A DNA stretch of 41,347 nt from Anaerolineales bacterium (GCA_035471605.1 DATIPW010000057.1:1-41347); one strand, 5' to 3'. Counted from the stretch's first letter, positions 4,727 to 23,311 are shown. Notes: a model not told the origin generated them from the sequence alone. Numbers and translations are program-made.

Positions 4727-4884
4727 TGCTGGCTTCGGTCCTCTTCTTTTCCGAGGCACAAGATGCGCCTCGGTACTCGTGGGCAGGGCTACAGACCACT
4801 AAGGCTTGGCTGAGACTTTGCAGTGGTTCTTCGCGGGGAACTATCTTGGACCGGTAAGCCGTGAGAACGTGTGCGCCAGGGAAA

Positions 4885-7713: not shown

Positions 7714-8577
7714 CTAGTGGAGGGAGGCGGCGATCTTCTTCAGGGCTTTGATGCTGAGCTCGACCATGTCGTCTTCCTTACCCTCCCAGTCGGAGTGCGG
7801 GTGGTCGATCTCCACGGCCAAGAAGCCCTTGAAGTTGGCCTTGTGCAGCAGCTCCGCCAGGCGCTGGTTGTCAATCAGTCCGTCGCCGACCGGAACGCCC
7901 CCAAAGAAATACCAGTCCGTCGGGCTCGCCTTCTTGTCTGGCATAAGGTCTTTGACATGAGTGGCCATGACATGCGGCGCAAGTTTCTCCATCGCCGCGA
8001 TCGGGTCGTCCAGCAGGCGTAGGAAATTGCCGGTGTCGAAATTCAGGCCGAAGCTCGTCGAATTGACTTCGTTGATGAGCTGCAGCACTTCGTCGCCCGT
8101 GAAGTCGATGTGATTCTCTACCGCCATCTTGACGCCGTGGTCCTCGGCAACCTTGATGGCCTTCCTGAACATCTCGACAAGGGCCTTGATCTGCGGCCCG
8201 TGGGGCTCGTGGCGGAATGCCAGGCTGCTACCCACGACGCGCATCACATCCGCGCCAATGGCCTTGGCCTTCGGAATGCCCGCGACCATCTCCTCGTATG
8301 CAGTCCAGTTCTGCCCGCGCTCGAGTCCGTCGGGATGACCCCAGGCATAGACGCGGTCCAGTTTGTAATCGTCCAGTTGGGCCTTCAGATCCCTGAACCA
8401 CCCATCATCTGCCTTCACGGGGAAGAAGCAGGACTCCAACGATACGCCGTCGACTTTCAACTCCCGGGCTCGCTTGAGGAAATCCTGCATGCTCCATTCT
8501 TTTTCCGGTTTCTTCTGATCCGGATAGACCTCCCCAAAGAAACGGTGATAGCAATAGCTGTCGATTCCGACCTTCAT
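7714..8577 (-). CDS. Sugar phosphate isomerase/epimerase family protein (xylose-isomerase-like TIM barrel)
   Basis: AVENH, FDTGNF, THVKD and AVEIDH blocks are typical of the AP_endonuc_2/XI-like barrel. A strong SD AGGAGG precedes ATG 8577. It is the first gene of the minus-strand unit. Confidence 0.85.
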   Translation of the reverse strand: MKVGIDSYCYHRFFGEVYPDQKKPEKEWSMQDFLKRARELKVDGVSLESCFFPVKADDGWFRDLKAQLDDYKLDRVYAWGHPDGLERGQNWTAYEEMVAGIPKAKAIGADVMRVVGSSLAFRHEPHGPQIKALVEMFRKAIKVAEDHGVKMAVENHIDFTGDEVLQLINEVNSTSFGLNFDTGNFLRLLDDPIAAMEKLAPHVMATHVKDLMPDKKASPTDWYFFGGVPVGDGLIDNQRLAELLHKANFKGFLAVEIDHPHSDWEGKEDDMVELSIKALKKIAASLH

Positions 8578-8699: not shown

Positions 8700-8748
8700 C
8701 TGTCATTACAGGATGACATTATTATACAGCCATCCGCCCGAAAAGCAA
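8700..8748 (-). promoter_or_regulatory. Promoter plus palindromic operator (op3) for the minus-strand sugar unit
   Basis: The minus strand reads TTGCTT (8748..8743), 16 nt, TATAAT (8726..8721), aa, TGTCAT-CCTGTA-ATGACA (8718..8701). The inverted repeat is related to the two operators at 8984 and 20508. Confidence 0.5.
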
Positions 8749-8951: not shown

Positions 8952-9003
8952 TTGACATCGCCTGTCACCGCAGGTATAATTGCTTGTAATAACAGGATTA
9001 CAA
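8952..9003 (+). promoter_or_regulatory. Consensus sigma70-type promoter plus palindromic operator (op1) for the gntR-led operon
   Basis: TTGACA (8952..8957), exactly 17 nt, TATAAT (8975..8980), tgc, then TTGTAAT-AACAGG-ATTACAA (8984..9003). It lies 33 nt upstream of the GntR GTG start. Confidence 0.65.
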
Positions 9004-9035: not shown

Positions 9036-9809
9036 GTGGACGCCAAGATCAACTTCGACAGCCACCTGCCGTACTACATCCAGCTAATCGACATCCTGCG
9101 CGACAAGGTGCAGACAGGTACATGGTCACCGGGGGATCAGATCCCGGGCGAGCAGGAGCTTTGCGAAATGTATTCGGTCAGCCGCACGGTCGTGCGGCAG
9201 GCGCTGCGGGAGCTCGAGCTGGAAGGCATGATCACGCGGCGGAAGGGCAAGGGCACGTTCATCTCGCCTCCAAAGATCAGTGAAGGCCTGGTGCAAAAGC
9301 TAACCGGCTTCTACCAGGACATGGTTGAACGAGGCCTTCGCACTACTACGAGGGTCTTGCATCACAGCGTGGTCCCCGCCACAGAAAAAATCGCCCGCTT
9401 CCTGAGAATTTCACCAGGGGACAAAGTGATCGATCTGCTCAGGCTGCGGTCGATCAACGATGAGCCGATCCAGCTGGTGACCAGCTACATTCCATTATCC
9501 GTATGCCCAGAGCTCGCCGAAGTGGATCTCACGAACCGCTCGCTTTACGAGTTCATGCAGGCGGAATGTGGCGTTTTCATTGCCAAGGGACGGCGTACTG
9601 TGGAGGCCGTCTTGGCCAATGAGACCGAGGCCGCGCTGCTGGGCGTGGAGCGCGGCGCACCACTCCTGATGCTCGATAGCATCAGCTTTTCGGAGTCCGG
9701 GCAGGTGGTCGAGTATTACCATGCTCTGCACCGGGGCGATCGATCCCGCTTCGAGGTCGAGCTTCTGCGCACCCGGGAAGCCGTCTCGAAGGCGCCAGCT
9801 TCCAACTAG
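9036..9809 (+). CDS. GntR-family transcriptional regulator, HutC subfamily (wHTH plus UTRA effector domain)
   Basis: LPYYIQLIDILRDKVQTGTWSPGDQIPGEQELCEMYSVSRTVVRQALRELELEGMITRRKGKGTFI is a classic GntR wHTH. The C-terminal half is UTRA-like. GTG start follows SD GGGGAGAG. Confidence 0.9.
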   Translation: MDAKINFDSHLPYYIQLIDILRDKVQTGTWSPGDQIPGEQELCEMYSVSRTVVRQALRELELEGMITRRKGKGTFISPPKISEGLVQKLTGFYQDMVERGLRTTTRVLHHSVVPATEKIARFLRISPGDKVIDLLRLRSINDEPIQLVTSYIPLSVCPELAEVDLTNRSLYEFMQAECGVFIAKGRRTVEAVLANETEAALLGVERGAPLLMLDSISFSESGQVVEYYHALHRGDRSRFEVELLRTREAVSKAPASN

Positions 9810-9835: not shown

Positions 9836-11410
9836 GTGCCGCAAAAGTATCTGATCGGTGTTGACCTTGGAACCAGCGGGACCAAGGCCGCGCTGTATCA
9901 GGTGGATGGCAGGCGCGTTTTCGCGGCCGCCATGGAAGTTCCCCTTCACCATCCGAGCCCTGGCGTCGTGGAGCAGGACAGCGAGGATTTCTACTCGTCG
10001 GCGGCGCAGACCGTTCGCGAATGCATCGGCGGCAGCGGCGTCGAGCCTGCCTCGGTCGCCGCGATCGCTTTCGATTCACAGATGGCAGGTGTTGGTCTCA
10101 TCGATGAGGATTTCCACCCGGTAGCGCGCTTCGACTCTTGGCTCGACATGCGCTGCCGGCCGTACATTGAGGCGATGGACAGGGAAGCGGGCGAGCGCAT
10201 CACCCAGCTCACTGGCTGCCCGCCGACTTGCGACCACGGCCCCAAAATGCTCTGGTGGAAGCACGAGCAGCCGGAAGTGTACAAGCGCGCCGCCAAATTC
10301 GTCATGCCGGGGACCTACGTGTCCGGCCGGCTGGCAGGTCTGCGAGCCGACCAGGCTTTCATCGACCATACCTACATACATTTCTCGGGATTCTCGGACG
10401 CTCGCAGCGGCACGTGGTCGGACGAACTGTGCGGCCGCTTTGGGCTTGACCCGCAAAAACTGCCCAGGATCGTGGCTCCGACCGAGATCATCGGTGAGGT
10501 ACTGGAGGGACCGGGCGCTGAGTTCGGGCTGGCGCCCGGCACCATCATTGCTGCAGGGGCAGGGGACACGGCCGCCAACGCGCTGGGCGCGGGAATCGTG
10601 CGCGCGGGGATGCTCTTCGACGTGGCAGGCACGGCTTCCGTCCTGGCCGGCTGCACGGACAGATTCGTAGCTGACACGCGCAACCGCGCCCTGATGACCA
10701 TGCGTTCCGTGATTCCGGGGCTGTGGAACCCGCTGGCCTACATCGGGGGCGGCGGAATCGCGCTGCGATGGTTTCGGGACAATTTCTACAATACTTCGCG
10801 GGGGAGCCCCCTGCCTCCTGATGAGGACACGTACGCGCGGATGATCGCCACGGCACAAGGCGCTCCCCCCGGAGCCGACGGGCTCCTCTTCTCGCCGCAC
10901 TTGGGCGGCCGCATCTGCCCCTCCAGTCCGGAAATGCGCGGCGCGTGGCTCGGCTTCTCGTGGTCCCACACGCAGGCGCACTTCGCCCGTTCGATCCTCG
11001 AGAGCATCGCCTACGAGTACGCGTACTATTTGAAGATCCTGCGCACCCTCATGCCTGAACTTGAGCTTGTAGAAGCGCGAGTGGTCGGCGGCGGTGCACG
11101 CAGCCCGGGGTGGAATCAGATCAAGGCCGATGTGCTGGCAGTCCCGTACCAGCGGCTGGCGGGCAGCGAGTTCGGCACATGGGGCACGGCCATGATCGCC
11201 GGGACGGCTGCAGGCCTGATTCCGGATCTCGCCGGGCACGCGCAGAGATGCGCCGTCCGCGACGGAGACCCGCTACAGCCTGGACAGGACGCCCACGCGG
11301 CCTACGAGCCGATCGTCAGTCGATATATACGGCTGCAACACACACTTAATGCCTACTTCACCAGCTCCGAGATTGAACCCGCCCGAGAGTGGGAGGATCG
11401 ATCTAGATGA
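9836..11410 (+). CDS. FGGY-family carbohydrate kinase (xylulokinase-like), copy 1
   Basis: YLIGVDLGTSGTKAALY N-terminal ATPase motif and GAGDTAANALGAG, about 520 aa. SD AGGAGAG. The stop overlaps the next start (ATGA at 11407). Confidence 0.9.
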   Translation: MPQKYLIGVDLGTSGTKAALYQVDGRRVFAAAMEVPLHHPSPGVVEQDSEDFYSSAAQTVRECIGGSGVEPASVAAIAFDSQMAGVGLIDEDFHPVARFDSWLDMRCRPYIEAMDREAGERITQLTGCPPTCDHGPKMLWWKHEQPEVYKRAAKFVMPGTYVSGRLAGLRADQAFIDHTYIHFSGFSDARSGTWSDELCGRFGLDPQKLPRIVAPTEIIGEVLEGPGAEFGLAPGTIIAAGAGDTAANALGAGIVRAGMLFDVAGTASVLAGCTDRFVADTRNRALMTMRSVIPGLWNPLAYIGGGGIALRWFRDNFYNTSRGSPLPPDEDTYARMIATAQGAPPGADGLLFSPHLGGRICPSSPEMRGAWLGFSWSHTQAHFARSILESIAYEYAYYLKILRTLMPELELVEARVVGGGARSPGWNQIKADVLAVPYQRLAGSEFGTWGTAMIAGTAAGLIPDLAGHAQRCAVRDGDPLQPGQDAHAAYEPIVSRYIRLQHTLNAYFTSSEIEPAREWEDRSR

Positions 11411-12459
11411 GGCAACCCGTTCGCTTGTGCATGATCGGCGCAGGCCGCGTCGGGAAGAATCATTCCCGGGCAATCGTGCGCGGCATTGCCGGCGCGCGCA
11501 TCGTCGCCCTGGTGGACCCTGTAGAGCAGATCCGGCAGCAGACGGCCACGGAGTTCGGCATCCAGCAGCAGTTCGCTTCGTTGGAAGAGGCGCTGGATCA
11601 GGCCGACTTCGACGCCGTGGTGATCACCACGCCCACTCCCACGCACATGCCTCTTGCGGCCACAGCCGCCGGGCACAAGAAGCACGTGTTTCTTGAGAAA
11701 CCGATGGCGTTGAACCTGCAGGAATGCGATGAGATCCTGGCGGCGGTTGAGAGGGAGAGCGTTCTGCTGCAGCTTGGGTTCATGCGCCGGTTTGATCCCG
11801 AGTTCGTCGCGGCCGCCCGGCGCATCGAGGCGGGTGAGATTGGTCAGCCCATGATGATCAAGTCCAATACCCATGGCCCCGGCCTGCCGCCCGCCTGGGC
11901 ACGCGACCTGCGCACCTCCAACGGGATGCTGGCCGAGGTCAACAGTCATGACTGGGATACGACGCGCTGGCTGATGGGCTCTGACTACGAGCGCGTCTAC
12001 ACTGAAGTGGCCAACTTCAAGGGCACGGCCCACGGCGTGGAAGCCGAGCATTTCTACGACAACGCCCTCGTCAATCTGAAATTCGAAAGCGGCGGCCTGG
12101 GATTGATCTCCGGAGTCTGCCCCTGCGGCTATGGGTATGATGCCAGGGTGGAGGTCATCGGTGAGAGGGGCATCATGCTGATTGGATCCCTGCAGGGCCA
12201 GGATGTGGTCGTGTGCACCGATCGCGACCACGGCCTGATCACGCCGATCTACCGGACGTGGCCGGAGCGCTTCGAATGGGGCTACATAAACGAGTTGCAG
12301 CATTTCGTCACCTGCATCCAAGATGGCGAGCGACCCCGTGTGGGCGGCGTGGACGGTCGATGGGCGGTTGCGGGTGTGCTAGCAGGGACGAAATCTTTTC
12401 TTGAGGAACGCCCCGTATATCTCAAGGAAATCCTTGGGAACGGCACGCGGAAAAGCTGA
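11407..12459 (+). CDS. Gfo/Idh/MocA family oxidoreductase (inositol-2-dehydrogenase-like)
   Basis: CMIGAGRVGKNHSRA Rossmann fold, HVFLEKPMA motif, 350 aa. Confidence 0.9.
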   Translation: MRQPVRLCMIGAGRVGKNHSRAIVRGIAGARIVALVDPVEQIRQQTATEFGIQQQFASLEEALDQADFDAVVITTPTPTHMPLAATAAGHKKHVFLEKPMALNLQECDEILAAVERESVLLQLGFMRRFDPEFVAAARRIEAGEIGQPMMIKSNTHGPGLPPAWARDLRTSNGMLAEVNSHDWDTTRWLMGSDYERVYTEVANFKGTAHGVEAEHFYDNALVNLKFESGGLGLISGVCPCGYGYDARVEVIGERGIMLIGSLQGQDVVVCTDRDHGLITPIYRTWPERFEWGYINELQHFVTCIQDGERPRVGGVDGRWAVAGVLAGTKSFLEERPVYLKEILGNGTRKS

Positions 12460-12465
12460 GGGTTG

Positions 12466-13506
12466 ATGTTGGCTGCGGTGTACCACGGTCCCAATGATCT
12501 GCGCCTCGAGCAGGTGCCTGTCCCGGAGATCGAACGCGGCGAGATTCTGGTGAGGGTCGTGAGCGCAAGCATCTGCGGCACCGACCTGCGCATTTGGCAC
12601 GGCAATCACCGCATGTACCCTCCCGGAAGCGTGCGCATTCCGGGGCACGAGATTGTCGGCACCATCGCGAAGGTGTCGCCCGAGATCAGGGATTATGCGG
12701 TTGGACAGCGGGTGTTCTGCGCGCCCAACACGGGCTGCGGCCATTGCCGGCAGTGCATAACCGGCCACAACAACCTGTGCGCCAACTACGATGCCCTGGG
12801 CGTGACTTCCAACGGCGGCTTCGCTGAGTATGTGCGTATCCCCGCCAGATCGGTCCAGCAGGGAAACCTGATTCCCGTGGAGCAGTCGGTGGATCCCGCG
12901 GTGGCCGCACTGCTCGAGCCGTTCGCGTGCGTGGTGAGAGGGCAGAATGCGCTGCGCATCCAGCCAGGCGAGACCGTGCTGGTGATGGGCGCGGGACCGA
13001 TCGGCGTCATGCACGTCCAGCTAGCGAAGAGCCGCGGCGCAAGCCGAGTGGTCGTCAGCGAACCGATTGCCGAGCGGAGAACGCAGGCCGCAGCCATGGG
13101 CGCCGACAAGGTCATCAATCCCGAAACGGAGGACCTGTCCGCGGCATTGCGGGTTGAGGGCAGCGCCGGACCCGACGTGATCATCGTGGCAGCGCCTGCG
13201 CACGCGGCCCAGGAGGCCGCCGTTCAGCTGGCTGCCGTAGGCGGACGCATCAACCTATTTGGGGGCTTGCCGAAAGAACGTCCAGTGATCAGCCTGGATT
13301 CCAATCTAGTGCATTACAAGGAGCTAGTGATCACTGGAACGACGGCCTGCAGCACGGCCGATTGCTGGCAGTCGGCGCGCATCGTCAATGCGGGCCTTGT
13401 CGATCTCTCGCCGTTGATCAGCCAGCGCTTTCCTCTGAAGGATGCGGTTGCCGCCTTCAGGGCGGCAGAGGACCGGAAGTCTCTCAAGGTCGTGCTGCAA
13501 CCATGA
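12466..13506 (+). CDS. Zn-dependent medium-chain alcohol/polyol dehydrogenase (sorbitol/threonine-DH-like)
   Basis: CGTDLRIWHG...GHEIVG catalytic-Zn motif. CGHCRQCITGHNNLC structural-Zn motif. GAGPIGV NAD motif. ATG 12466 is preferred over TTG 12463. Confidence 0.9.
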   Translation: MLAAVYHGPNDLRLEQVPVPEIERGEILVRVVSASICGTDLRIWHGNHRMYPPGSVRIPGHEIVGTIAKVSPEIRDYAVGQRVFCAPNTGCGHCRQCITGHNNLCANYDALGVTSNGGFAEYVRIPARSVQQGNLIPVEQSVDPAVAALLEPFACVVRGQNALRIQPGETVLVMGAGPIGVMHVQLAKSRGASRVVVSEPIAERRTQAAAMGADKVINPETEDLSAALRVEGSAGPDVIIVAAPAHAAQEAAVQLAAVGGRINLFGGLPKERPVISLDSNLVHYKELVITGTTACSTADCWQSARIVNAGLVDLSPLISQRFPLKDAVAAFRAAEDRKSLKVVLQP

Positions 13507-14474
13507 CCCAGCCTTCCAATCACGGAGCGCCCAGCCGCGCGCGGCCGGTCGTGACCGTGCAGGGCCCGGCGGCGCACGACAGCCTGGGAATCACCGATGC
13601 ACACAACCACGTGTGGATCGAGGCCGTGCGGGGCGCGGATTCGGCCAGCCCAGTCCTGGATGACTTCGACGCCATCGCGGGCGAACTGGTGGAGTACCGC
13701 CAGGCAGGCGGTGGCAGCCTGCTCGATTGCCAGCCAGGCGGCGCGGGGCGGGATGGCAACAAGCTCCGCGAGCTCGCAGACATATCCGGCGTGAATCTGA
13801 TCGCCTGCACGGGCTTCCACCGGCGCAAGTACTACGCTGCAGACCACAAGCTCTGGGAGGCTCCTGCCGAGAAGGTCTCAGATCTGATCTGCGCTGAGTT
13901 CGAGCAGGGCCTCGAAGAAACTCTCGGAGGCGCAACCCCGGTGAAAGCAGGCTTCATCAAGATCGCGCTTGAGGCCACCTGGGAGGACTGCCCGCGTGCA
14001 GCAGTTGATGGCGCCGGCCTCGCCGCGGTCAAGACCGGAGCCCTCATGGCGATGCACACGGAGAAGGGCGCTCTGGCCGAACGTGCCTGCACACATCTGA
14101 TCGCGATCGGCGTTGAGCCGAAGCAGCTCCTCGTCTGCCATATGGACAAGCGCCCGGATGTTGGACTCCACAAGGCGCTGGTTGGCATGGGCACGATGCT
14201 GGAATACGACACGTTCTACCGGCCCAAATACGAACCCCCCGTCCGCCTGTGGCCGCTGCTGGAGATCATGGCGGACGCTGGATTGGCGGGCTACATCGCC
14301 CTCGCAACCGACATGGCGGAGAGCGAGCTCTACCGTCGTATCGGCGGCGGGCCAGGTCTGGCCAGCCTGCCCGGCGAGATCCGGCGACATCTGCAGGATC
14401 GGGGATTCTCCACGAAGCAACAGGAGCAGTTGTTGGGTGGGAATGTTGCCCGGCGCCTCGCGGGGCTTGATTAG
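13503..14474 (+). CDS. Phosphotriesterase-family (amidohydrolase) hydrolase, probable lactonase
   Basis: All PTE-type ligand positions are recognisable: GITDAHNHVW (HxH), KAGFIKIAL (bridging Lys), AMHTEKG, LLVCHMDK and ALATDMA. The ATG overlaps the previous stop (ATGA 13503..13506). The upstream part of track ORF 13362.. overlaps the preceding gene and is discarded. Confidence 0.8.
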   Translation: MTQPSNHGAPSRARPVVTVQGPAAHDSLGITDAHNHVWIEAVRGADSASPVLDDFDAIAGELVEYRQAGGGSLLDCQPGGAGRDGNKLRELADISGVNLIACTGFHRRKYYAADHKLWEAPAEKVSDLICAEFEQGLEETLGGATPVKAGFIKIALEATWEDCPRAAVDGAGLAAVKTGALMAMHTEKGALAERACTHLIAIGVEPKQLLVCHMDKRPDVGLHKALVGMGTMLEYDTFYRPKYEPPVRLWPLLEIMADAGLAGYIALATDMAESELYRRIGGGPGLASLPGEIRRHLQDRGFSTKQQEQLLGGNVARRLAGLD

Positions 14475-14493
14475 TCTCAAACTGGAGAAGCAA

Positions 14494-15081
14494 ATGAGGG
14501 ACCTGCCATTCACCTTCACGCTGCCTTTGCCAGAGGTCATCCCCTCTAGGAAAGACAATCACATCCAGCGCCGGCTTTCTGCACTTCGCGGTCAGTTTCT
14601 CGAACAGGCCGCGTACGATAGGATGCTAGCCAGGGAAGACGAATTGGTCTATGAGGTCTACGAGATCAAGCGGCCCGAGGCCCAAGGAGAGTTGATCATG
14701 GGGGTCTCCATCGTTCACCCCGGCAAAGTGGGCCGGGAGTTCTACATGACGAAAGGACACTTCCACTCCGCGCTGGAGACTTCGGAGATCTACTGCTGCC
14801 TACGCGGTGAGGGCTACATGGTGATGGAAACACCGGAGGGGGAAACGAGCGTGGAGCCACTGACGCCCGGCAAGTTGCTCTATGTGACCCCGGGCTGGGC
14901 GCATCGATCCGTATGCACCTCCCGACAGGAAGACCTGGTCACCTTCTTTGCCTATCCCGCCAACGCGGGACATGACTACGCCACGATCGAACGTACCGGC
15001 TTCAGGAAGCTGGTCGTTGATGGACCCAAGGGGCCCGAGATCGTCGACAACCCGCGGGCGACAGGCTCTGCACGGTCATGA
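14494..15081 (+). CDS. pgiA: Cupin-type phosphoglucose isomerase (archaeal cPGI family)
   Basis: VYEVYEI...HPGKVGREFYMTKGHFHS...EIYCCLRGEGYMVMETPEGE...YVTPGWAHRSV...AYPANAGHDYATIERTGFRKLVV...VDNPR aligns block for block with the Pyrococcus furiosus cupin PGI as I recall it. SD GGAGA lies before ATG 14494. Confidence 0.8.
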   Translation: MRDLPFTFTLPLPEVIPSRKDNHIQRRLSALRGQFLEQAAYDRMLAREDELVYEVYEIKRPEAQGELIMGVSIVHPGKVGREFYMTKGHFHSALETSEIYCCLRGEGYMVMETPEGETSVEPLTPGKLLYVTPGWAHRSVCTSRQEDLVTFFAYPANAGHDYATIERTGFRKLVVDGPKGPEIVDNPRATGSARS

Positions 15082-16043
15082 AGCTCAAGGAATGCCGCCT
15101 GCTCGTAACACCAACTTCGTACGGGAAGAACGACCCCCGGCTCAAGAGCGACCTCGAGGCCATGGTTGGTGAAGTCACCTACAACTCGACGGGGAAGCCG
15201 CTGACATCAGGGCAAGTCAGGGATCTCTTGCCCGGCATCGACGGATACATCGCGGGCTTGGACGCCATCGACGCGGCAGCCCTCGCCGCCGGAAACCGCC
15301 TGCGGGTGATCGCGCGCTACGGCGTGGGTGTTGATAACGTCGACCTGGAAGTCGCAAAGCATCGGAAGATCGTGGTCACAAACACCCCCGGCGCGAATTC
15401 CGTCTCCGTTGCCGAGTTGGCGCTGGGCCTGATGCTGGCGTTGGCGCGCCAGATTCCGGAGGCCGTGGAGGCCGTGCACCTCGGCAAGTGGCCGCGGTAC
15501 TCCGGTCTGAGCCTGGAAGGCAAGACCGTGGGGATTCTTGGGCTGGGTGCCATCGGCAGGCAGCTGGTCCGCAGGCTTCAGGGGTTCGATTGCCGAATCA
15601 TCGCGCACGAACCAATCGTTGACGCGGCCGCTGCAAATTCATTAGGTGTTGAGCTCTTGAGCATGCGTGAAGTCATTGGCCAGGCTGATTTCTTGAGTCT
15701 GCACGTACCGTTGCTGCCCGAGACGCGCGGTTTGGTGAACGCCGAGTTCCTGAGCCAGATGAAGCCGGGGTCATTCCTGATCAACACGGCTCGCGGCGAG
15801 GTCATCGACGAGGGCGCTCTTCTGGGCGCCCTCCGGAGCGGTCATCTGAGGGGGGCGGGGTTGGACACGTTTGCTCAGGAACCGCCTCATCCAGACAACC
15901 CTCTGCTGCGGCTGCCGCAGGTCGTGGCAACTCCGCATCTGGGCGCCATGACGGATGGCGCAACGGGCAATATGGGTTGGATGGCAATGCAAGACTGCCT
16001 GGCGGTATTGAAGGATGAGGAGCCGGCGCATCGGGTCGTTTGA
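15078..16043 (+). CDS. D-isomer-specific 2-hydroxyacid dehydrogenase (phosphoglycerate/glyoxylate reductase-like)
   Basis: GKTVGILGLGAIGRQL NAD motif, NTARGEVIDE, and C-terminal ATPHLGAMT with the catalytic His. ATGA overlap with pgiA. Confidence 0.9.
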   Translation: MKLKECRLLVTPTSYGKNDPRLKSDLEAMVGEVTYNSTGKPLTSGQVRDLLPGIDGYIAGLDAIDAAALAAGNRLRVIARYGVGVDNVDLEVAKHRKIVVTNTPGANSVSVAELALGLMLALARQIPEAVEAVHLGKWPRYSGLSLEGKTVGILGLGAIGRQLVRRLQGFDCRIIAHEPIVDAAAANSLGVELLSMREVIGQADFLSLHVPLLPETRGLVNAEFLSQMKPGSFLINTARGEVIDEGALLGALRSGHLRGAGLDTFAQEPPHPDNPLLRLPQVVATPHLGAMTDGATGNMGWMAMQDCLAVLKDEEPAHRVV

Positions 16044-16077
16044 CCGGCCGGACCTCCAGATTGGGTTTGGAGGAACC

Positions 16078-16731
16078 ATGAACAAAGCTGACGTCCTTGA
16101 ACGAATCAAGGATCTCGGGGTGCTGGCTGTGATTAGGGGCCCCTCGGCGGACCTCACGGTCAAGATGGTCGATGCGCTGATGGAAGGAGGCATTGCCGGG
16201 ATCGAAATCACCTACAGCACGCCCAACGCTGAGGAGGTCGTCCGTGCCCTGGTGAAGAAGTTCGGAGAAAGCATACTCGTTGGCATGGGCACGCTGACAG
16301 ATCTCGAACAGGCGGAATCTGCCAAGGCCGCCGGCGCGAAATTCCTCGTAAGCCCTGTTTGCGAGCCGGCGCTGGTCCGCAGCATGATTGCCAGCGAATT
16401 GCTGACGATGGCAGGCGCGCTTACGCCCACCGAGGTGCTGCAGGCCTACAGCCTCGGATCGGATGTCGTCAAGGTATTCCCGGGATCGCTTGGCGGGCCT
16501 GCCTACGTCAGGGCCCTCAAGGGACCGTTCCCGCACATTCCGATGATGCCGACCGGCGGAGTAAGTTCGACCAACGTGGCCGACTGGTTCGCCACGGGCG
16601 TGGTGGCAGTGGGTGCAGGCAGCGAATTATGCCCGCCGCAATTGGCCAGAGAAGGGAAGTTCGCCGAGATCACCAAGCGCGCTCAGGAATTCGCGAGGAT
16701 CGTGAAGGCCGCAAGACCATCTGTCAAGTAG
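16078..16731 (+). CDS. eda: 2-dehydro-3-deoxy-phosphogluconate / 4-hydroxy-2-oxoglutarate aldolase family (class I, Eda-like)
   Basis: LAVIRG....GGIAGIEITYSTPNA...VGMGTL...GAKFLVSP...DVVKVFPG...PTGGV blocks of the KDPG aldolase fold. SD GGAGGA lies before ATG 16078. Confidence 0.85.
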   Translation: MNKADVLERIKDLGVLAVIRGPSADLTVKMVDALMEGGIAGIEITYSTPNAEEVVRALVKKFGESILVGMGTLTDLEQAESAKAAGAKFLVSPVCEPALVRSMIASELLTMAGALTPTEVLQAYSLGSDVVKVFPGSLGGPAYVRALKGPFPHIPMMPTGGVSSTNVADWFATGVVAVGAGSELCPPQLAREGKFAEITKRAQEFARIVKAARPSVK

Positions 16732-16744
16732 ACAGGAACCCATC

Positions 16745-17719
16745 ATGAACACGCCTACCGCTGCTGCAGAGACGTTCAATATCGTCACCAAGAGTGCTCC
16801 AACCTTCTACTTCATCGGCGTCACCACCGGAAAGTCATCCATTAACAAGGTCTTCCCCCTTTGGATGGAAGTCCTTGGACGCCCCGAGGTCGCGCTGGAG
16901 GGCATGGATTGCAGGATCCATGACGTGCCCGGTGTCTACCGCGAGAAGGTCGCTCAGATCAAGTACGACCCGCTGTCGGTGGGCGCCCTTGTCACCACGC
17001 ACAAGATCGATCTGCTGACAGCCGCCCGGGACATGTTCGATTACCTGGACTCGTACGCCCTCATCACGGATGAGGTTTCGAGTATTTCGAAACTGGACGG
17101 GCGACTCGAAGGTCATGCGAAAGACCCGATCACGGCGGGCGCCAGCCTGGATGCCATCATCGACAAGGGCTACTTTGGCGAGACGAAGGGACATGTGCTC
17201 AGCTTCGGCGCCGGAGGCTCAGCGATTGCCACGCTGCTGCATCTGATCAACAAGAAGAATAAGGAAGACAGACCGGACCGCTTCACGTTCGTGAACCGGT
17301 CACAAGGAAGGCTGGATCACGCCAGGCAGATGGTCGGAAATCTCAAGACCGACATCCTCATCGAATACATTCAAAACATGGATCCGGAAGTCAACGACAG
17401 GATCATGGAGAAGTTGCCGCCCTACAGCATAGTGATCAATGCCACGGGCATGGGCAAGGACACGCCAGGCTCACCGATCACCTGGAACGGCAAGTTCCCG
17501 ATGAACAGCATCTCCTGGGAATTCAACTACCGAGGCGAACTCGATTTCCTGCACCAATCTCTGGCGCAGGCGGAAAGCCGCAAGGTGAAGGTCGAGGACG
17601 GCTGGATCTACTTTGTGCACGGGTGGACGCAGGTGGTGGCGCAAGTGTTGCACTTCGACCTGACGCCCGATCTGTTTGCGCAGCTCAACGAAGCGGCATC
17701 GAGCGTGCGCGGCCGGTGA
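16745..17719 (+). CDS. Shikimate/quinate dehydrogenase-family protein (AroE-like, non-canonical N-terminus)
   Basis: GALVTTHK (catalytic Lys block), LEGHAKD (NTD-like Asp block), FGAGGSA dinucleotide loop and INATGMG are all in AroE-family order. Confidence 0.7.
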   Translation: MNTPTAAAETFNIVTKSAPTFYFIGVTTGKSSINKVFPLWMEVLGRPEVALEGMDCRIHDVPGVYREKVAQIKYDPLSVGALVTTHKIDLLTAARDMFDYLDSYALITDEVSSISKLDGRLEGHAKDPITAGASLDAIIDKGYFGETKGHVLSFGAGGSAIATLLHLINKKNKEDRPDRFTFVNRSQGRLDHARQMVGNLKTDILIEYIQNMDPEVNDRIMEKLPPYSIVINATGMGKDTPGSPITWNGKFPMNSISWEFNYRGELDFLHQSLAQAESRKVKVEDGWIYFVHGWTQVVAQVLHFDLTPDLFAQLNEAASSVRGR

Positions 17720-17734
17720 GCCACCGGGACCGGG

Positions 17735-18202
17735 ATGCCAATGAGCAGCAAGACGAACATCGCCACGCTCCACCATGAGCAAGGCTACGGCTGCGCTCAG
17801 CCCGTGCTGGCGGCGTTCGCGGGGGATTATGTCTCGAGTGAAGAGCAAGCCCTCAAACCTGCCACGGGATTCGGATCAGGCATGGGGGGGCTGTGCGAGG
17901 TGTGGGGAGCTCTGACGAGCGCCTTCCGGGTGCCCAGGTCGAAATACGGCCGTGCAGAATGCGATGGCACGAACTACCGTACAAAGACCGAAACCCCGTA
18001 TACCCCCATCCATGCCTTTGCAAGCCGCTTCAAGGAGCGCAACTTCGGCATCTACTGCGGGGTACTGGCCGGACCCGACCTCAACAACCCCGAGCAACGC
18101 GAGAGGGCGAAGCGGGAGGGCGTCCTTGCCACAACCTGCAGCCAGTGCGTTCAGGATGTCACCGAGTTGGTTGCGGAACTGCTCGAGGTAGAGACGCCAT
18201 GA
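17735..18202 (+). CDS. C_GCAxxG_C_C family protein (putative redox-active small protein)
   Basis: HHEQGYGCAQPVLAAFAG....GFGSGMGGLCEVWGALTSA....FGIYCGVL....TTCSQCVQDV matches the family order of conserved Cys blocks. The central CGA block is altered to CEVWGA. Confidence 0.55.
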   Translation: MPMSSKTNIATLHHEQGYGCAQPVLAAFAGDYVSSEEQALKPATGFGSGMGGLCEVWGALTSAFRVPRSKYGRAECDGTNYRTKTETPYTPIHAFASRFKERNFGIYCGVLAGPDLNNPEQRERAKREGVLATTCSQCVQDVTELVAELLEVETP

Positions 18203-18885
18203 GCTTGGACCCCGAGGACATTGCGGCCATGATCGACCTGTCCTGCGTGCGGACAACCTCGAGCCGCGAGGACATCGACCGGATGGTTGAGGCGGCGGCA
18301 CGCTACCACTTTGGACACGTTTCCGTCCTGCAGTGCTTCATCCCCTACACGCGGGATTTGTTGAAGGACGCGCCCGGCGTGGAACTGGTCGGGAATGTCA
18401 GCTTCCCCTCGGGCTCTGACTCCACATCGATCAAGGTTGCACAGGCCAGGGAGATGCTCGCGTCCGGTTGTCACGAGATCGACATGGTGATGAACATAGC
18501 CAGACTGCGCTCCGGCGAAGTCGCCGAGGCGGAATCCGATGTTTGCCAAGTGATCGAGGCCGTGCGTCCAACGCCTGTAAAGGTAATCATCGAAATGATG
18601 GTCCTGACGCCGGAAGAGGTCGCGACGGCATGCAACATCTCCGTTCGCGCCGGGGCTTCATTCGTCAAGACGGGCACAGGTTGGGCTGAGCGCGGCACGA
18701 CGCTCGAGGACGTGCGGCTCGTCAAGTCGATCGTGGGCGACAGCATCAAGATCAAGGCCTCAGGCGGCATACGACGGCTCGACACCCTGATCGCGATGTA
18801 CCAAGCCGGCGCGCGCCGCTTTGGCGTCAACCTTGGGAGCGGAATCCAGATTGTTGAGGAAGCCCGTGCGCTGCAGGCAGGCTGA
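18199..18885 (+). CDS. deoC: Deoxyribose-phosphate aldolase family (DeoC-like class I aldolase)
   Basis: HEIDMVMN, VKVIIE, ASFVKTGTGW (Schiff-base Lys block) and IKASGGIR. ATGA overlap with the preceding gene at 18199..18202. The upstream part of track ORF 17893.. is discarded. Confidence 0.85.
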   Translation: MSLDPEDIAAMIDLSCVRTTSSREDIDRMVEAAARYHFGHVSVLQCFIPYTRDLLKDAPGVELVGNVSFPSGSDSTSIKVAQAREMLASGCHEIDMVMNIARLRSGEVAEAESDVCQVIEAVRPTPVKVIIEMMVLTPEEVATACNISVRAGASFVKTGTGWAERGTTLEDVRLVKSIVGDSIKIKASGGIRRLDTLIAMYQAGARRFGVNLGSGIQIVEEARALQAG

Positions 18886-18894
18886 GGCAATGCA

Positions 18895-20433
18895 ATGAAC
18901 GAGAAGATCATTTCGTTTGACCTGGGAACCGGCGGTAACAAGGCTTCCCTCTATGATGCGGCGGGCAACTGCCTCGCCAGTGCGTTTGTCCCCTACCCCA
19001 CCACGTATCCGCAGGTCGGCTGGCACGAGCAGCGCCCGGAGAACTGGTGGAATGCGGTTGTTGACAGTGCTTCCCAACTGATTGCATCAAGCGGAGTCAA
19101 CAAGAACGAGGTGGTGTGCCTGGGAATCTCGGGACACAGCCTTGGGGCCGTACCCATCGACGCAAGCGGCAATGTCCTGCGCGACGCCACGCCCATATGG
19201 TCCGACGTGCGCGCCGAAGCCGAGGCCCACGACTTTTTCACTAGGGTCGATCCCGCCACCTGGTACATGACCACCGGCAACGGGTTCCCGGCCGCGCTCT
19301 ACACGGTCTTCAAGGTCATGTGGTACCGGCGACACGAGCCGGCCATGTTCCGCAAGGTGCATCGGATCCTTGGCACGAAGGATTACATCAACTTCCGCCT
19401 CACGGGTCAGATCAAAACCGACTTCTCGTATGCGTCGGGGACAGGGGTGTACGACCTTCAAGCCGGGCAATACAGCGCTGCGTTCATGAGGGCCAGTGGC
19501 CTGCCCGAGGACTTTTGGCCCGAGATTGTGCCCTCGAGCGAGGTGCTCGGCGAGCTGACGCCCGAGGTGGCCGACCGGATGGGCCTGGGAAGAAGCGTAC
19601 GCGTGGTGTGCGGCGGCGTTGACAACTCGTGCATGGCGTTGGGGGCCGGCAACATCCGCGACGGCCGGGTCTACACGTCGCTCGGCTCGGCAGCCTGGAT
19701 CGCGGTCTCATCTGAGAAGCCCGTGCTGGACGAAAAGTACCGGCCCTTTGTATTCACACACGTCATCCCGAAGATGTTTACGTCCGCGGTGAGCATCTTT
19801 TCTGCAGGTACCTCTTTTACGTGGGTCAGGGACAACCTGTGCGAGGGTCTTGCAGGACGTGCCGTGCAGGAGGACAGGGACGCGTACGTACTGATGAACG
19901 AGGTGGCCGCGCAGGCGCCCGCCGGCTCCCGCAAACTGCTGTTCAATCCCAGCCTGGCAGGCGGAACCTCGCAGGATCCCAGCCCGCATATCCGCGGCGG
20001 CTACATCGGCTTGGACCTGAAGCACGGAAAGCCGGAGCTCATCCGCTCGGCGATGGAGGGCATCGCCATGAATCTACGTCTGAGGCTTGATCTGCTCCGT
20101 AAATACACGCCCCTCGAAGACCAAATCCTGTTCGTCGGCGGCGGCGCGAAGAGCCGCTTCTACCTGCAGATTTTCGCGGACGCCTTCAACGCGCGCATCC
20201 GGAAGACGAACATCGACCAGGATGCTGGAGCCCTCGGCGCGGCCGCCATTGCGGCAGTGGGATGCGGGCTCTGGAACGGCTACGAGAAGATCGACGAGAT
20301 CCATCACACAGAGGAGGTCGTGGAGCCCAATCCGGAGAACAACGCCAAATACGAGAAGCTCCTCCCCATCTTTGAGCTTGCAGCGAAGTTGCAGTCGGAG
20401 ATTGGCGATGCCCTGCAGTCCGTAGACATATAG
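18895..20433 (+). CDS. FGGY-family carbohydrate kinase (xylulokinase-like), copy 2
   Basis: IISFDLGTGGNKASLY, GGVDNSCMALGAG and FVGGGAKS, 512 aa. It is the last gene of the 12-gene operon. Confidence 0.9.
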   Translation: MNEKIISFDLGTGGNKASLYDAAGNCLASAFVPYPTTYPQVGWHEQRPENWWNAVVDSASQLIASSGVNKNEVVCLGISGHSLGAVPIDASGNVLRDATPIWSDVRAEAEAHDFFTRVDPATWYMTTGNGFPAALYTVFKVMWYRRHEPAMFRKVHRILGTKDYINFRLTGQIKTDFSYASGTGVYDLQAGQYSAAFMRASGLPEDFWPEIVPSSEVLGELTPEVADRMGLGRSVRVVCGGVDNSCMALGAGNIRDGRVYTSLGSAAWIAVSSEKPVLDEKYRPFVFTHVIPKMFTSAVSIFSAGTSFTWVRDNLCEGLAGRAVQEDRDAYVLMNEVAAQAPAGSRKLLFNPSLAGGTSQDPSPHIRGGYIGLDLKHGKPELIRSAMEGIAMNLRLRLDLLRKYTPLEDQILFVGGGAKSRFYLQIFADAFNARIRKTNIDQDAGALGAAAIAAVGCGLWNGYEKIDEIHHTEEVVEPNPENNAKYEKLLPIFELAAKLQSEIGDALQSVDI

Positions 20434-20475: not shown

Positions 20476-20527
20476 TTGACACAACTGCAGAAGATGAGTA
20501 CAATCACTTGTAATTACAGGATTACAG
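20476..20527 (+). promoter_or_regulatory. Consensus sigma70-type promoter plus palindromic operator (op2) for the 20744..26659 operon
   Basis: TTGACA (20476..20481), exactly 17 nt, TACAAT (20499..20504), cac, then TTGTAAT-TACAGG-ATTACAG (20508..20527). The architecture matches 8952..9003. Confidence 0.65.
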
Positions 20528-20743
20528 CCGGCGACGCCAACGCCATAGCGGTCGAAACCTGCTCCATCATCTTCCAGCAATCCCCTTTAGCGGTTCGCTT
20601 CTCCCACAATTCGTCCTCTGTGCCTGATGCACCGCCACGCACCCGGGCGCGCATCGCGGCCCCGCCTACATGTGGAAGGAGTCCTATCGATTGGGACCAG
20701 TGACCCGCGCAGCCAGGACAGCAATAGCCGAAAGGATTGCACA

Positions 20744-21715
20744 ATGAAGATAGGTCTGTTCACAGCCACTTTTCTTGATATGAAGATCGACGAGGTGTTC
20801 AGACTGGCCGCCGGCTTGGGGTACGAGGCCGTCGAAATGCCTGCATTTGCCAACAACGGGCAGCTCGACATTGAAGCGATCGTCAAGGGCAACGCCGCGG
20901 CTGATCTGAAGAACCAGGTCAAGTCGCACGGCCTTATTATCTCCGCCTTGGCCAATCACCCGGAGGGACAGATCGTACTGGGCCCGTATGGCAAGGACAC
21001 CGACGCCATTTGCCAGGGCACCAAGGAGGAGAAGATCAAGTTCGGCACGGAACGCATGATCAAGACGGCGGCGGCCGCCAATGCGCTTGAAGTACCCGTG
21101 GTTACCGGCTTTATCGGTTGCGAGAATTTTGGCCGCTTCTTTCCCTGGCCCTATTCCCAGGGCTGGTCTGACATGGAACAGGAGTTTGTCGAGCGCTGGG
21201 GAAAGATCCTCGACAAATTTGCCGAGTACGGCGTGAAGTTCGCCCACGAGCCGCATCCGAGTGAACTGGCGTACAACGTCGAGACGGCACAGCGAGCGGT
21301 GGAGCTGATGGGTGGTCGCAAGGAGTTCGGCTTCAATTTCGATCCCGCCAACCTGATCTACATGGGCATCGACGTGGAGAACTTCATCGACGCGCTGGCG
21401 CCACATATCTATCACGTGCATGCCAAGGACGGCGAGATCGTGGCCCACAACGTTCGACGTTCGGGCCTCATTCCGCAGGGCGACTGGCAGCGCCTGGGTC
21501 GCGGCTTCCGCTTCCGCATCCCTGGTTGGGGATCCGTGCCGTGGAAGAAGGTCATCACCGAACTCTCTCTGATCGGGTACGACTACGTCATGTCTTATGA
21601 GCATGAGGATGTCACCATGAGCCGGCATGACGGCATCACCAAGACGATTGCCTACCTCAAGCCGCTGCTCATCGAGAAGCCGTACGAAGGCCGCCACGAC
21701 GTGCTGTTCAACTGA
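20744..21715 (+). CDS. Sugar phosphate isomerase/epimerase family protein (xylose-isomerase-like TIM barrel)
   Basis: MKIGLFTATF..., FAHEPHP, FNFDPANL, YHVHAKDGE and MSYEHED blocks. It is a paralog of 25745..26659. Start at ATG 20744. The upstream part of the track ORF lies in the leader. Confidence 0.85.
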   Translation: MKIGLFTATFLDMKIDEVFRLAAGLGYEAVEMPAFANNGQLDIEAIVKGNAAADLKNQVKSHGLIISALANHPEGQIVLGPYGKDTDAICQGTKEEKIKFGTERMIKTAAAANALEVPVVTGFIGCENFGRFFPWPYSQGWSDMEQEFVERWGKILDKFAEYGVKFAHEPHPSELAYNVETAQRAVELMGGRKEFGFNFDPANLIYMGIDVENFIDALAPHIYHVHAKDGEIVAHNVRRSGLIPQGDWQRLGRGFRFRIPGWGSVPWKKVITELSLIGYDYVMSYEHEDVTMSRHDGITKTIAYLKPLLIEKPYEGRHDVLFN

Positions 21716-21739
21716 GGAGACCAGCGAGGAGTCTATGCG

Positions 21740-22831: not shown

Positions 22832-23245
22832 GTGTCCTGCTGGCGGAGCAACGCACTGAAGATCAACGGCATCGACCACGTATCCATCAACTTGACCGAC
22901 GCGGCCCGGTCCTTTCACTTCTACGCAGCCGTGCTTGGGCTGGAACGCCTCGAGACAGTGGACTGCGGCGATTTCGAGATCACGTACTTCGGCCTACCGA
23001 GCGGGGGCCGGCTCGAGCTCTTCGACTATCGCGGCCGCAACGCCGTTCGGCGGCGCCAGGAAAGCGATGTTGGGCTGCGCCACATCGCGTTCGAGGTGGA
23101 AGATGTCGCGGCGCACGAGGCGCGGCTCCGACAGGCCGGCGTCAAGATCACCCTGCCCACGACCGAATTCCCGAACCTGGGCGTGAGGGTGCTGCTCTTC
23201 GAGGACCCCAACGGCGTGACACTCGAGTTTTGTGAACGGCTGTAG
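22832..23245 (+). CDS. VOC (glyoxalase/bleomycin-resistance/dioxygenase) family protein
   Basis: IDHVSINLTDAARSFHFYAAVLGLE....LRHIAFEVEDV....FEDPNGVTLEF is the typical paired beta-alpha-beta-beta-beta VOC signature. The start (GTG 22832) is uncertain. Confidence 0.75.
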   Translation: MSCWRSNALKINGIDHVSINLTDAARSFHFYAAVLGLERLETVDCGDFEITYFGLPSGGRLELFDYRGRNAVRRRQESDVGLRHIAFEVEDVAAHEARLRQAGVKITLPTTEFPNLGVRVLLFEDPNGVTLEFCERL

Positions 23246-23311
23246 CGAGCTCACGCAGGAGCAAGGCCGAACGTACCGAACAGCATGACCCATTCCAGGA
23301 GGAAGCACAAG

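Follow-up and report, generated by a model that had tools for sequence, protein, structure and literature searches.

The present analysis concerns a 41,347-nucleotide stretch of DNA from an Anaerolineales bacterium (GCA_035471605.1, DATIPW010000057.1:1-41347), hereafter the window, and the dense cluster of sugar-type enzyme genes that it carries at positions 9836-20433. The interval is filled by eleven open reading frames (ORFs), G1-G11, which an initial annotation made from the sequence had described, at these same coordinates, as co-oriented genes of named enzyme families; ORF calls and Pfam agree with this description for the whole plus-strand set, G8 being placed by weaker evidence. Families were assigned with Pfam, equivalog status was tested against the curated NCBIfam cut-offs, and structural relatives were taken from sequence matches in the PDB and from Foldseek. 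The four ATGA overlaps noted earlier at 11407, 13503, 15078 and 18199 are present in the sequence, and the remaining junctions from the upstream regulator gene G0 to G11 measure at most 34 nucleotides, with the start of G7 taken as 16078. With one strong promoter in front of this tightly coupled series, the genes G0-G11 are almost certainly co-transcribed; a terminator scan returned fewer candidates than expected by chance, none of them convincing within the operon, and neither Rfam families nor tRNAs were detected in the window. Among the enzymes, a curated NCBIfam cut-off was passed only by the Eda-type aldolase G7 and the DeoC-type aldolase G10, whereas the other enzymes of G1-G14 stay under all equivalog cut-offs, most of them by more than twofold. 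The earlier remark that neither a sugar-acid dehydratase nor a PfkB kinase is encoded holds as well, as no match to IlvD/Edd, the enolase superfamily or PfkB was obtained with Pfam among the window ORFs scanned, which took in all of at least 380 amino acids except two antisense to cluster genes (10076-11239 and 20684-21928). The predicted genes and control elements are collected in Table 1.

Table 1. Predicted genes, promoters and operators in and around the cluster (positions counted from the first nucleotide of the window)
Feature	Position	Strand	Basis or details
Xylose-isomerase-like TIM barrel, ketose 3-epimerase-like	2550..3398	-	Pfam AP_endonuc_2
ROK-family protein (NagC/Mlc-like regulator or sugar kinase), directly downstream of U443	3395..4759	-	Pfam ROK
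U443, 442 aa, predicted L-arabinose/L-fucose isomerase fold	5043..6371	-	AlphaFold and Foldseek
Gfo/Idh/MocA dehydrogenase, levoglucosan-dehydrogenase-like (sugar 3-dehydrogenase type)	6495..7658	-	Pfam
Xylose-isomerase-like TIM barrel, first gene of the divergent operon	7714..8577	-	Pfam AP_endonuc_2
Divergent promoter and candidate operator O1	8701..8748	-	-35 TTGCTT 8748-8743; -10 TATAAT 8726-8721; TGTCATTACAGGATGACA 8701-8718
Main promoter and candidate operator O2	8952..9002	+	TTGACA-N17-TATAAT 8952-8980, 12/12 consensus; TGTAATAACAGGATTACA 8985-9002
G0, GntR/HutC-type (HutC/FrlR-type) repressor with UTRA effector domain	9036..9809	+	Pfam GntR and UTRA
G1, FGGY sugar kinase	9836..11410	+	Pfam FGGY_N/C
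G2, IolG-like Gfo/Idh/MocA dehydrogenase	11407..12459	+	Pfam GFO_IDH_MocA
G3, Zn-dependent medium-chain dehydrogenase (polyol, aldonate or keto-inositol type)	12463..13506	+	Pfam ADH_N/ADH_zinc_N
G4, PTE-family (amidohydrolase) hydrolase, putative phosphosugar lactonase	13503..14474	+	Pfam PTE
G5, cupin-type phosphoglucose isomerase	14494..15081	+	Pfam GPI (PF06560), 98 bits, cut-off 20.7
G6, D-2-hydroxyacid dehydrogenase, nearest 3-phosphoglycerate dehydrogenase	15078..16043	+	Pfam 2-Hacid_dh
G7, Eda-type class I aldolase (KDPG/KHG)	16078..16731	+	Pfam KDPG/KHG aldolase
G8, divergent shikimate-dehydrogenase superfamily member	16745..17719	+	no Pfam match
G9, C_GCAxxG_C_C protein, optional insertion	17735..18202	+	Pfam
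G10, DeoC (deoxyribose-phosphate aldolase type), module B	18199..18885	+	TIGR00126, 203.6 bits, cut-off 117.3
G11, FGGY kinase near xylulokinase, module B	18895..20433	+	Pfam FGGY
Second plus-strand promoter and candidate operator O3	20476..20526	+	TTGACA-N17-TACAAT 20476-20504, 11/12 consensus; TGTAATTACAGGATTACA 20509-20526
G12, xylose-isomerase-like TIM barrel, module B	20744..21715	+	Pfam AP_endonuc_2
G13, Zn-dependent medium-chain dehydrogenase, module B	21740..22798	+	Pfam; NCBIfam matches all below cut-off
Glyoxalase/VOC-family protein, 137 aa, GTG start, module B	22832..23245	+	ORF; NCBIfam VOC matches
G14, Old-Yellow-Enzyme-type flavin oxidoreductase, module B	23285..24553	+	Pfam Oxidored_FMN

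Only two strong sigma-70-like plus-strand promoters were found in 20 kb, at 8952-8980 and 20476-20504, and in both of them the palindrome TGTAATnACAGGATTACA begins 4 nucleotides past the -10 box; a third copy (8701-8718) lies 2 nucleotides past the minus-strand TATAAT box of the divergent genes. The palindrome search returned three copies of the 18-bp element TGTnATnACAGGATnACA in the window against 0.18 expected by chance, each 2-5 nucleotides after a -10 box. This element is the candidate operator of G0, which, as in the HutC/FrlR-type regulons, combines a GntR helix-turn-helix with a UTRA domain and has the predicted operator at the promoters that it would regulate. In 43 of 58 related loci the palindrome lies no more than 150 nucleotides before G0 or G1, and across Anaerolineae it is kept also before G12, before the divergent gene of the triose-phosphate isomerase (TIM) barrel type and before stand-alone G8 genes. 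Since the same palindrome stands behind three promoters beside G0, this regulator probably represses three units, namely the divergent operon, G0-G11 and G12-G14, of which the last possibly extends to the following pair G15-G16. As read from the DNA, the three promoters with their one shared predicted operator define a single regulon that includes the divergent operon. Therefore, the limits 9836-20433, which the initial annotation had given to the functional unit, are too narrow, the same operator extending the unit to G0, to the divergent operon (5043-8577) and to G12-G14.

The proteins of the window were mapped onto 80 species-representative loci, the counts being taken from those with enough flank. 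Of 68 Anaerolineae species loci, 41 have the full set G1-G8 in colinear order and 54 have at least six of these genes colinear, an arrangement far beyond chance; G8 is the most conserved gene among them, with homologs 66-90% identical throughout the class. The C_GCAxxG_C_C gene G9 is present in no more than 9 of the 52 related loci, in each case inserted between G8 and G10, and the genes G10-G14 behave in an all-or-none manner (all five in 20 of 61 loci, none in 32), with module B forming an operon of its own in one locus (L065) and G10-G11 being inverted in two others (L027, L047). The block is thus composite and consists of cassette A (G1-G8), the optional G9, and module B (G10-G11 with the downstream operon); together with the repressor G0, cassette A represents the ancient core of the regulon. 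The idea of eleven genes acting as one unit with two converging branches is not sustained by this synteny, which splits them into cassette A, G9 and G10-G14. As to the proposed co-conservation and co-transcription of the members, the tight coupling, the single strong promoter and the persistence of G1-G8 speak for it, but G9 and G10-G11 have proved separable.

In the more distant operons of Promineifilum, Ardenticatenaceae and Caldilineaceae, the order is a gene for a Peripla_BP_4 binding protein of the monosaccharide type, two TIM barrel genes, G1-G8 and an ortholog of U443 directly after G8, with the optional addition of an MtaA-like gene, a further TIM barrel gene and a gene similar to the levoglucosan dehydrogenase (LGDH), and in some cases of a mutarotase-like gene. 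A second PTE paralog, 27-30% identical to G4, occurs after G8 in exactly the four loci without G4 (L041, L044, L045, L048), which looks like a paralogous displacement that would keep a hydrolase function in the cassette. The reduced loci with G8 alone have mostly unrelated genes as neighbours. A gene of the GH31 family was seen near a pair of a G7-like gene and G8 in L075. The MtaA/CmuA-like methyltransferase of the URO-D family (194 bits against a cut-off of 235) follows U443 in L054, L058, L061, L065, L067, L079 and L080, and stands in these sugar operons without a visible corrinoid protein.

A search of representatives of 50%-identity clusters collected 236 clusters of the G8 family at E < 1e-30, and a 44%-identical homolog led to gene clusters in Actinomycetota (L089, L090, L092). 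Orthologs of G0-G8, the repressor included, were identified there in an Actinomycetota metagenome-assembled genome (MAG; L089, no match to G4), in an Acidimicrobiales MAG (L092) and in the cultured Phytoactinopolyspora sp. YIM 96077 (L090), with identities of 27-49%, and the kinase (45-47% identical) corresponds to G1 and not to G11. These clusters add a short-chain dehydrogenase/reductase (SDR) and an ATP-binding cassette (ABC) transporter of the CUT2 type. In the cultured strain, the cluster (CP033729.1, about 4.962-4.984 Mb) is split by an insertion sequence element with an rve transposase. A natural fusion was found in L088, where the protein P0242 (1077-3062, 661 amino acids) joins a G6-like 2-hydroxyacid dehydrogenase to a G8-like domain, which suggests consecutive steps for these two enzymes, such as those of a redox epimerase pair; the gene order there is cupin-type phosphoglucose isomerase (cPGI), the fusion, Eda, an epimerase-like TIM barrel, a FucI-like isomerase, a major facilitator superfamily transporter and a GH2-like gene. 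The FucI-like gene, which is recognisable by Pfam, holds in L088 the place equivalent to that of U443. A dehydratase was not found in any related version of the cluster among the loci examined in both phyla.

The first enzymes of cassette A are related to known families at a distance. G1 scores 257 bits with the XylB model TIGR01312 (cut-off 380) and 209 with gntK_FGGY (cut-off 649). For G2, the IolG model TIGR04380 gives 272 bits against 355, and the best PDB match is 3ezy (4e-54), which we take to be TM0414 (IolG) of Thermotoga maritima, with inositol dehydrogenases next. The top models for G3, all below their cut-offs, are Tdh (224 bits), IolM (197, cut-off 450) and IdnD (134). The hydrolase G4 is best matched by 3msr (1.7e-26), presumably a phospho-furanose lactonase of the Lmo2620 type; however, the corresponding NCBIfam model NF045706, although the best one, gives 99.9 bits against 630, so that G4 is assigned by its sequence to the PTE superfamily and not to the orthologs of this lactonase. 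G5 belongs by its features to the family of cupin-type phosphoglucose isomerases, as it aligns with the cPGI of Pyrococcus furiosus at 4e-47 and keeps the motifs TKGHFH, SEIY, GWAHR and YPAxAGHDY, which presumably provide the metal ligands (His, His, Glu, His), the catalytic Glu and the His/Tyr of the phosphate site. Unsaturated uronate processing of the KduI/KduD type, considered for G5 and G8, was ruled out because G5 is too near the authentic phosphoglucose isomerases. G6 reaches 279 bits with the model of 3-phosphoglycerate dehydrogenase (PGDH; cut-off 454) and matches a PGDH in the PDB at 9e-65. The aldolase G7 exceeds the cut-off of TIGR01182 (191.4 bits against 156) and keeps the equivalents of the Schiff-base Lys, the catalytic Glu, the Thr and the phosphate-binding Ser of E. 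coli Eda. Thus, by sequence comparison, the nearest characterised relatives of the four consecutive enzymes G4-G7 all act on phosphorylated substrates.

For G8, the shikimate dehydrogenase model TIGR00507 gives 30 bits (E 2.8e-7) against a cut-off of 200, the profile of the family matches AroE of Methanocaldococcus jannaschii at 5.8e-5, and the top Foldseek matches of its model all belong to the shikimate dehydrogenase family, including a 5-ketofructose reductase. The model was built from homologs of at least 80% identity, a restricted input that accounts for its poor pLDDT of 62, and was used for the fold class only. From the weak TIGR00507 score and from profile and fold matches confined to shikimate dehydrogenases it follows that G8 is best taken as a member of the superfamily and not as an AroE ortholog; by sequence, the previous label 'AroE-like' holds only weakly, and Pfam gives no match. 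Invariant in the alignment are K87 (THK), D127 (GHAKD), a GAGGS loop and an NRS motif; the Lys and Asp align with the catalytic pair of shikimate dehydrogenases, and the NRS motif suggests that G8 is probably NADP(H)-dependent. As far as the alignments indicate, the catalytic residues of G5, G7 and G8 are intact.

In the divergent operon, the LGDH-like protein encoded at 6495-7658 gives 394 bits over its full length with LevoglcsnDh (NF052479), under the cut-off of 650, and the TIM barrel gene next to it adjoins an LGDH-like gene in relatives too. The protein U443 returned no sequence match in Pfam, NCBIfam or the PDB. Its AlphaFold model (pLDDT 76, pTM 0.81) was matched by Foldseek to L-arabinose isomerases in all of the top 33 hits (E 9e-18 to 3e-15, TM about 0.6), followed by L-fucose isomerase. 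The family has invariant Glu and His residues, which suggest a metal site, and on the strength of the modelled fold U443 is a putative aldose-ketose isomerase for an unphosphorylated sugar. The same 'hypothetical protein' family counts thousands of metagenomic members.

In module B, the kinase G11 is close to xylulokinases, with 344 bits against the cut-off of 380 of TIGR01312 and a PDB match to E. coli XylB at 5e-56, so that the DeoC-type aldolase G10 has an FGGY kinase as a partner and not a DeoK of the PfkB type. The TIM barrel G12 has a median identity of 87% in relatives. The apparent gap of 486 bp between G13 and G14 is filled by the VOC gene, with homologs in the same place in relatives, and the position of G14 after G13 and the VOC gene is likewise kept.

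Since G4-G7 resemble enzymes for phosphorylated substrates, a phosphorylative and oxidative route with an Eda cleavage is favoured for cassette A, which would serve a hexose-level sugar (a rare hexose, a hexitol or a sugar of the L-aldose type) within a repressor-controlled modular regulon; this reading is put forward tentatively, its chances being a little short of even. According to it, a CUT2-type ABC transporter would take up the sugar, the isomerase U443 of the AraA fold or the polyol dehydrogenase G3 would make a ketose of it, the FGGY kinase G1 would phosphorylate this ketose, and the cPGI G5 would turn the ketose phosphate to an aldose-6-phosphate. Then G2 may oxidise C1 of the aldose-6-phosphate, the PTE-like phospholactonase G4 may open the lactone, the PGDH-like G6 with the shikimate-dehydrogenase-like reductase G8 may oxidise or epimerise C2 of the 6-phospho-aldonate, and the aldolase G7 would cleave the 2-keto-phosphoacid to a C3 keto acid and glyceraldehyde-3-phosphate. 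Module B could be an accessory branch ending in a cleavage of a deoxy-sugar phosphate of the deoxyribose-phosphate aldolase (DERA) type, where the TIM barrel and the Old Yellow Enzyme would deoxygenate a keto-sugar, the product then being phosphorylated by the XylB-like kinase and cleaved by DeoC. Every substrate of this scheme, the order of its steps and the origin of the 3-deoxy group for Eda are inferred only, whereas the gene families and their coupling, the promoters and predicted operators, the limits of the modules, the conservation in two phyla and the intact catalytic residues of G5, G7 and G8 were read from the sequences themselves.

Several points weigh against this route. Eda normally needs a 3-deoxy substrate, and because no version of the cluster contains a dehydratase, the chemistry of the proposed chain has a gap between G6 and G7. 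The options would be the oxidation of a 3-deoxy-6-phospho-aldonate, the cleavage of a 3-hydroxy substrate to hydroxypyruvate, a beta-elimination by the TIM barrels, or an unlinked housekeeping dehydratase. Moreover, G1 is far under every kinase equivalog cut-off, the nearest relatives of G2 are inositol dehydrogenases and not sugar-phosphate dehydrogenases, the structural model of G8 is of the poor quality mentioned above, and the role of G8 is guessed from the fusion of the G6::G8 type and from a distant likeness to keto-sugar reductases. In a Streptosporangiales MAG, only the regulator, SDR, transporter, Gfo/Idh/MocA, medium-chain dehydrogenase (MDR) and FGGY genes are present, and the halves of the cassette may therefore be separate pathways. 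Also, G8 homologs of 40-53% identity, including those of Bryobacteraceae and of unplaced MAGs, are found in unrelated contexts. A more specific form of the route, a dehydratase-free branch of the Entner-Doudoroff kind, is distinctly unlikely to be right. In it, the PGDH-like dehydrogenase and its shikimate-dehydrogenase-like partner would make the 2-keto group of the 6-phospho-aldonate; either the Eda homolog would cleave a 3-hydroxy compound (to hydroxypyruvate and glyceraldehyde-3-phosphate), or the substrate would be a 3-deoxy-hexose phosphate, itself formed through keto-sugar beta-elimination by a Gfo/Idh/MocA protein and a TIM barrel with a subsequent flavin ene-reduction by the Old Yellow Enzyme. 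If true, this branch would be a previously undescribed way to the Entner-Doudoroff-type aldol cleavage, class-wide in Anaerolineae and common to Actinomycetota.

The kinship of G2 with the inositol dehydrogenases calls for weighing a catabolism of cyclitols in a variant of the T. maritima pathway, in which G2 would convert inositol to inosose and the diketone would come from G3; the ring would be opened hydrolytically by the PTE-like G4, giving a keto-aldonate, and isomerisation, reduction, phosphorylation and Eda cleavage would follow, with the many TIM barrels and Gfo/Idh/MocA paralogs handling other stereoisomers, as in the iol operons. TIGR04380 is by far the best model for G2 in both phyla, the MDR protein matches the IolM model, which is even the top match for the Acidimicrobiales ortholog, the TIM barrels beside the cassette show a weak similarity to IolE, and the MtaA-like methyltransferase of some operons could demethylate methyl-inositols. 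The binding protein associated with the cassette is of Peripla_BP_4, presumably the family of inositol- and rhizopine-binding proteins. However, G2 and G3 fail the curated cut-offs of IolG and IolM, as do the TIM barrels (at most 52 bits against 290 for IolE, 133 against 300 for IolO), homologs of IolC, IolD, IolB, IolJ and IolA or matches to other iol families did not appear in the NCBIfam scan, and the well-conserved phosphosugar isomerase G5 has no role in the known inositol routes. The mutarotase-like, AraA-fold and FucI-like isomerases indicate a reducing sugar, and a C-C hydrolase of the PTE fold would be unprecedented, so that cyclitol use is considered unlikely. No greater probability is given to a salvage of L-aldoses or L-aldonates by redox epimerisation, modelled on the L-idonate pathway of E. 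coli, the L-glucose pathway of Paracoccus and the L-galactose pathway of Bacteroides: G2 as an aldose 1-dehydrogenase, G4 as a lactonase, G3 as an aldonate 5-dehydrogenase and G8 or the SDR as a keto-reductase would lead, via G1 as a gluconokinase-like FGGY enzyme, to 6-phosphogluconate or its analogue, and further through a housekeeping dehydratase encoded elsewhere to G7. The set of enzyme families fits those pathways, with their Gfo/Idh/MocA aldose dehydrogenase, lactonase of the amidohydrolase type, Zn-dependent MDR acting as aldonate 5-dehydrogenase, reductase, kinase and KDPG(al) aldolase; G3 matches the L-idonate 5-dehydrogenase model and G1 the gntK_FGGY model, the actinobacterial SDR matches the gluconate 5-dehydrogenase model among others, and the Streptosporangiales sub-cluster (transporter, SDR, Gfo/Idh/MocA, MDR, FGGY) resembles a self-contained module of the idonate type. 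But all these model matches are far under the cut-offs, the cPGI G5 and the PGDH-like G6 are left without a role, the closest relatives of G4 hydrolyse phosphorylated lactones, and an unlinked dehydratase would be required in every lineage.

The sites that in relatives bind phosphate might instead accommodate a sulfonate, as in the use of sulfosugars of the sulfoquinovose type, since sulfoquinovose and sulfolactate can be regarded as close analogues of glucose-6-phosphate and 3-phosphoglycerate. The cPGI-like protein would then serve as the isomerase for sulfoquinovose, with the 6-deoxy-6-sulfo-ketose as the substrate of the FGGY kinase and sulfolactate as that of the PGDH-like dehydrogenase, and Eda would be the aldolase for 2-keto-3,6-dideoxy-6-sulfogluconate (KDSG). 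The GH31 gene of L075 belongs to a family containing sulfoquinovosidases, and the FucI-like gene of L088 matches SftI weakly (48.7 bits, cut-off 700). However, the GH31 gene occurs in this one locus only, U443 matches no NCBIfam model, SftI included, and neither within nor around any of the cluster's versions was a sulfonate exporter, sulfolyase or sulfoacetaldehyde enzyme found; G10 is of the DERA type and not of the YihT/LacD type, and the cupin treated in a paper on sulfoglycolysis is a different one (DUF4867), so that a sulfosugar substrate is hardly to be credited. Finally, the genes might be merely divergent members of an ordinary known route, combining gluconate or Entner-Doudoroff, xylulose and deoxyribose use. 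This view is in accordance with the two aldolases that pass the curated models, with G11 lying near the xylulokinase cut-off and with G5 looking like a bona fide phosphoglucose isomerase, but Edd, Zwf and Pgl are absent, the enzymes of G1-G14 other than Eda and DeoC remain below all equivalog cut-offs, and the cassette includes G8 without a Pfam assignment. The fixed association of nine genes across two phyla is not known from any pathway, and the literature search returned none with it; the ordinary route is regarded as very improbable.

The preferred phosphorylative route shares its proposed logic with the upper part of the Entner-Doudoroff route and the oxidative pentose-phosphate sequence, i.e., a hexose-6-phosphate, C1 oxidation, hydrolysis of a 6-phospholactone, a 6-phospho-aldonate and Eda cleavage, and G7 is a true member of the Eda family. 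In contrast to the Zwf/Pgl/Edd set, a Gfo/Idh/MocA dehydrogenase would stand here for Zwf and a PTE-fold hydrolase for Pgl, a PGDH-like dehydrogenase is in the place of Edd, and there is no dehydratase, with no ILVD_EDD or enolase-superfamily match in the scanned window ORFs or in the related loci. The GntII route of E. coli for L-idonate, that of Paracoccus sp. 43P for L-glucose and that of Bacteroides vulgatus for L-galactose have in common with the cluster the Gfo/Idh/MocA and Zn-dependent MDR dehydrogenases, a metal-dependent lactonase, a keto-reductase, a kinase, an aldolase for 2-keto-3-deoxy-6-phosphogluconate or -galactonate and a regulator of the sugar-acid type; however, they include or depend on a sugar-acid dehydratase, use kinases of the PfkB or GntK type, and are not known to have a cupin phosphoglucose isomerase, a PGDH-like or a shikimate-dehydrogenase-like enzyme. 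With the myo-inositol pathway of T. maritima (IolG, IolM, IolN, IolO), the likeness consists in G2 being nearest to the presumed IolG (3ezy), in a Zn-dependent MDR similar to IolM and in TIM barrels similar to IolO and psicose epimerase with a ROK protein nearby, whereas all these matches are below the cut-offs, none is to a model named IolN, and the FGGY, cPGI, PGDH-like, shikimate-dehydrogenase-like and PTE-like proteins are foreign to it.

Common to G4 and the phospho-furanose lactonases, its best-scoring characterised relatives, are the PTE fold and an HxH motif for metal, but the score is far below the model cut-off; these lactonases are found in contexts of the phosphotransferase system or ascorbate type and are not known to stand beside Eda and cPGI. 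The pair of the divergent operon (6495-7658 and 7714-8577) has the same two-family architecture as the levoglucosan/3-keto-glycoside pathway with LgdA and TIM-barrel eliminases (PMC7676230), and by this analogy could supply oxidation and beta-elimination chemistry; however, the LGDH-like protein is under the cut-off, the partner genes differ, and the pair here lies inside a much larger regulon. As in the AraA-AraB and FucI-FucK systems, an isomerase of the AraA/FucI fold (U443), FGGY kinases and a terminal aldolase occur together, but no resemblance of U443 to AraA or FucI was detected at the sequence level, the aldolases are of class I (Eda, DeoC) and not of class II, and five dehydrogenases intervene.

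The superfamilies and the logic of a sugar operon under a repressor, with class I aldolases at its end, are known, whereas the combination is unfamiliar: it is kept in two phyla, lacks a dehydratase, includes the Pfam-less G8 and has the likewise Pfam-less U443 as a co-regulated companion. A full-text literature search returned no paper naming this gene combination. Since nearly all enzymes score under the curated cut-offs, with only DeoC and Eda passing NCBIfam, no version of the cluster has a dehydratase and no paper found names the combination, the initial description of a candidate undescribed catabolic route stands. Among the heterotrophs of anaerobic digesters, activated sludge, sediments and soils, Anaerolineae rank with the most abundant and the least cultured, and their diet is largely inferred from annotation. 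The nine-gene cassette belongs to the best conserved of their sugar loci, common to Actinomycetota and unexplained by the described pathways. Its solution would give functions to G8 and U443, would probably reveal new specificities in the families of the PTE-like lactonase, the cupin phosphoglucose isomerase, the PGDH-like enzyme and the FGGY kinases, and would name a carbon source important to these organisms. With a conserved operator, and with the cassette occurring in an actinobacterium that has been cultured, the question is accessible to experiment.

Apart from the above-mentioned units, a second pair of an LGDH-like Gfo/Idh/MocA gene and a TIM barrel gene, G15-G16 (24568-26659, plus strand), follows G14 and is found near the cassette in 2-3 of 52 relatives; G15 gives 184 bits with LevoglcsnDh (NF052479; cut-off 650). 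An ORF of 456 amino acids at 37231-38601 on the minus strand had no Pfam match. Past U443, the string of minus-strand genes continues at 949-4759 with the ROK protein, which scores 221 bits with ROK_glcA_fam (cut-off 260), an ABC ATPase with two ABC domains, and the epimerase-like TIM barrel (2550-3398), which gives 200.6 bits with the D-psicose 3-epimerase model (cut-off 300) and has a homologous TIM barrel in L088. The membership of this TIM barrel, at the tail of the string, in the regulon is uncertain; together with the ABC ATPase and the ROK protein, it may make up this system's transporter and epimerase portion.

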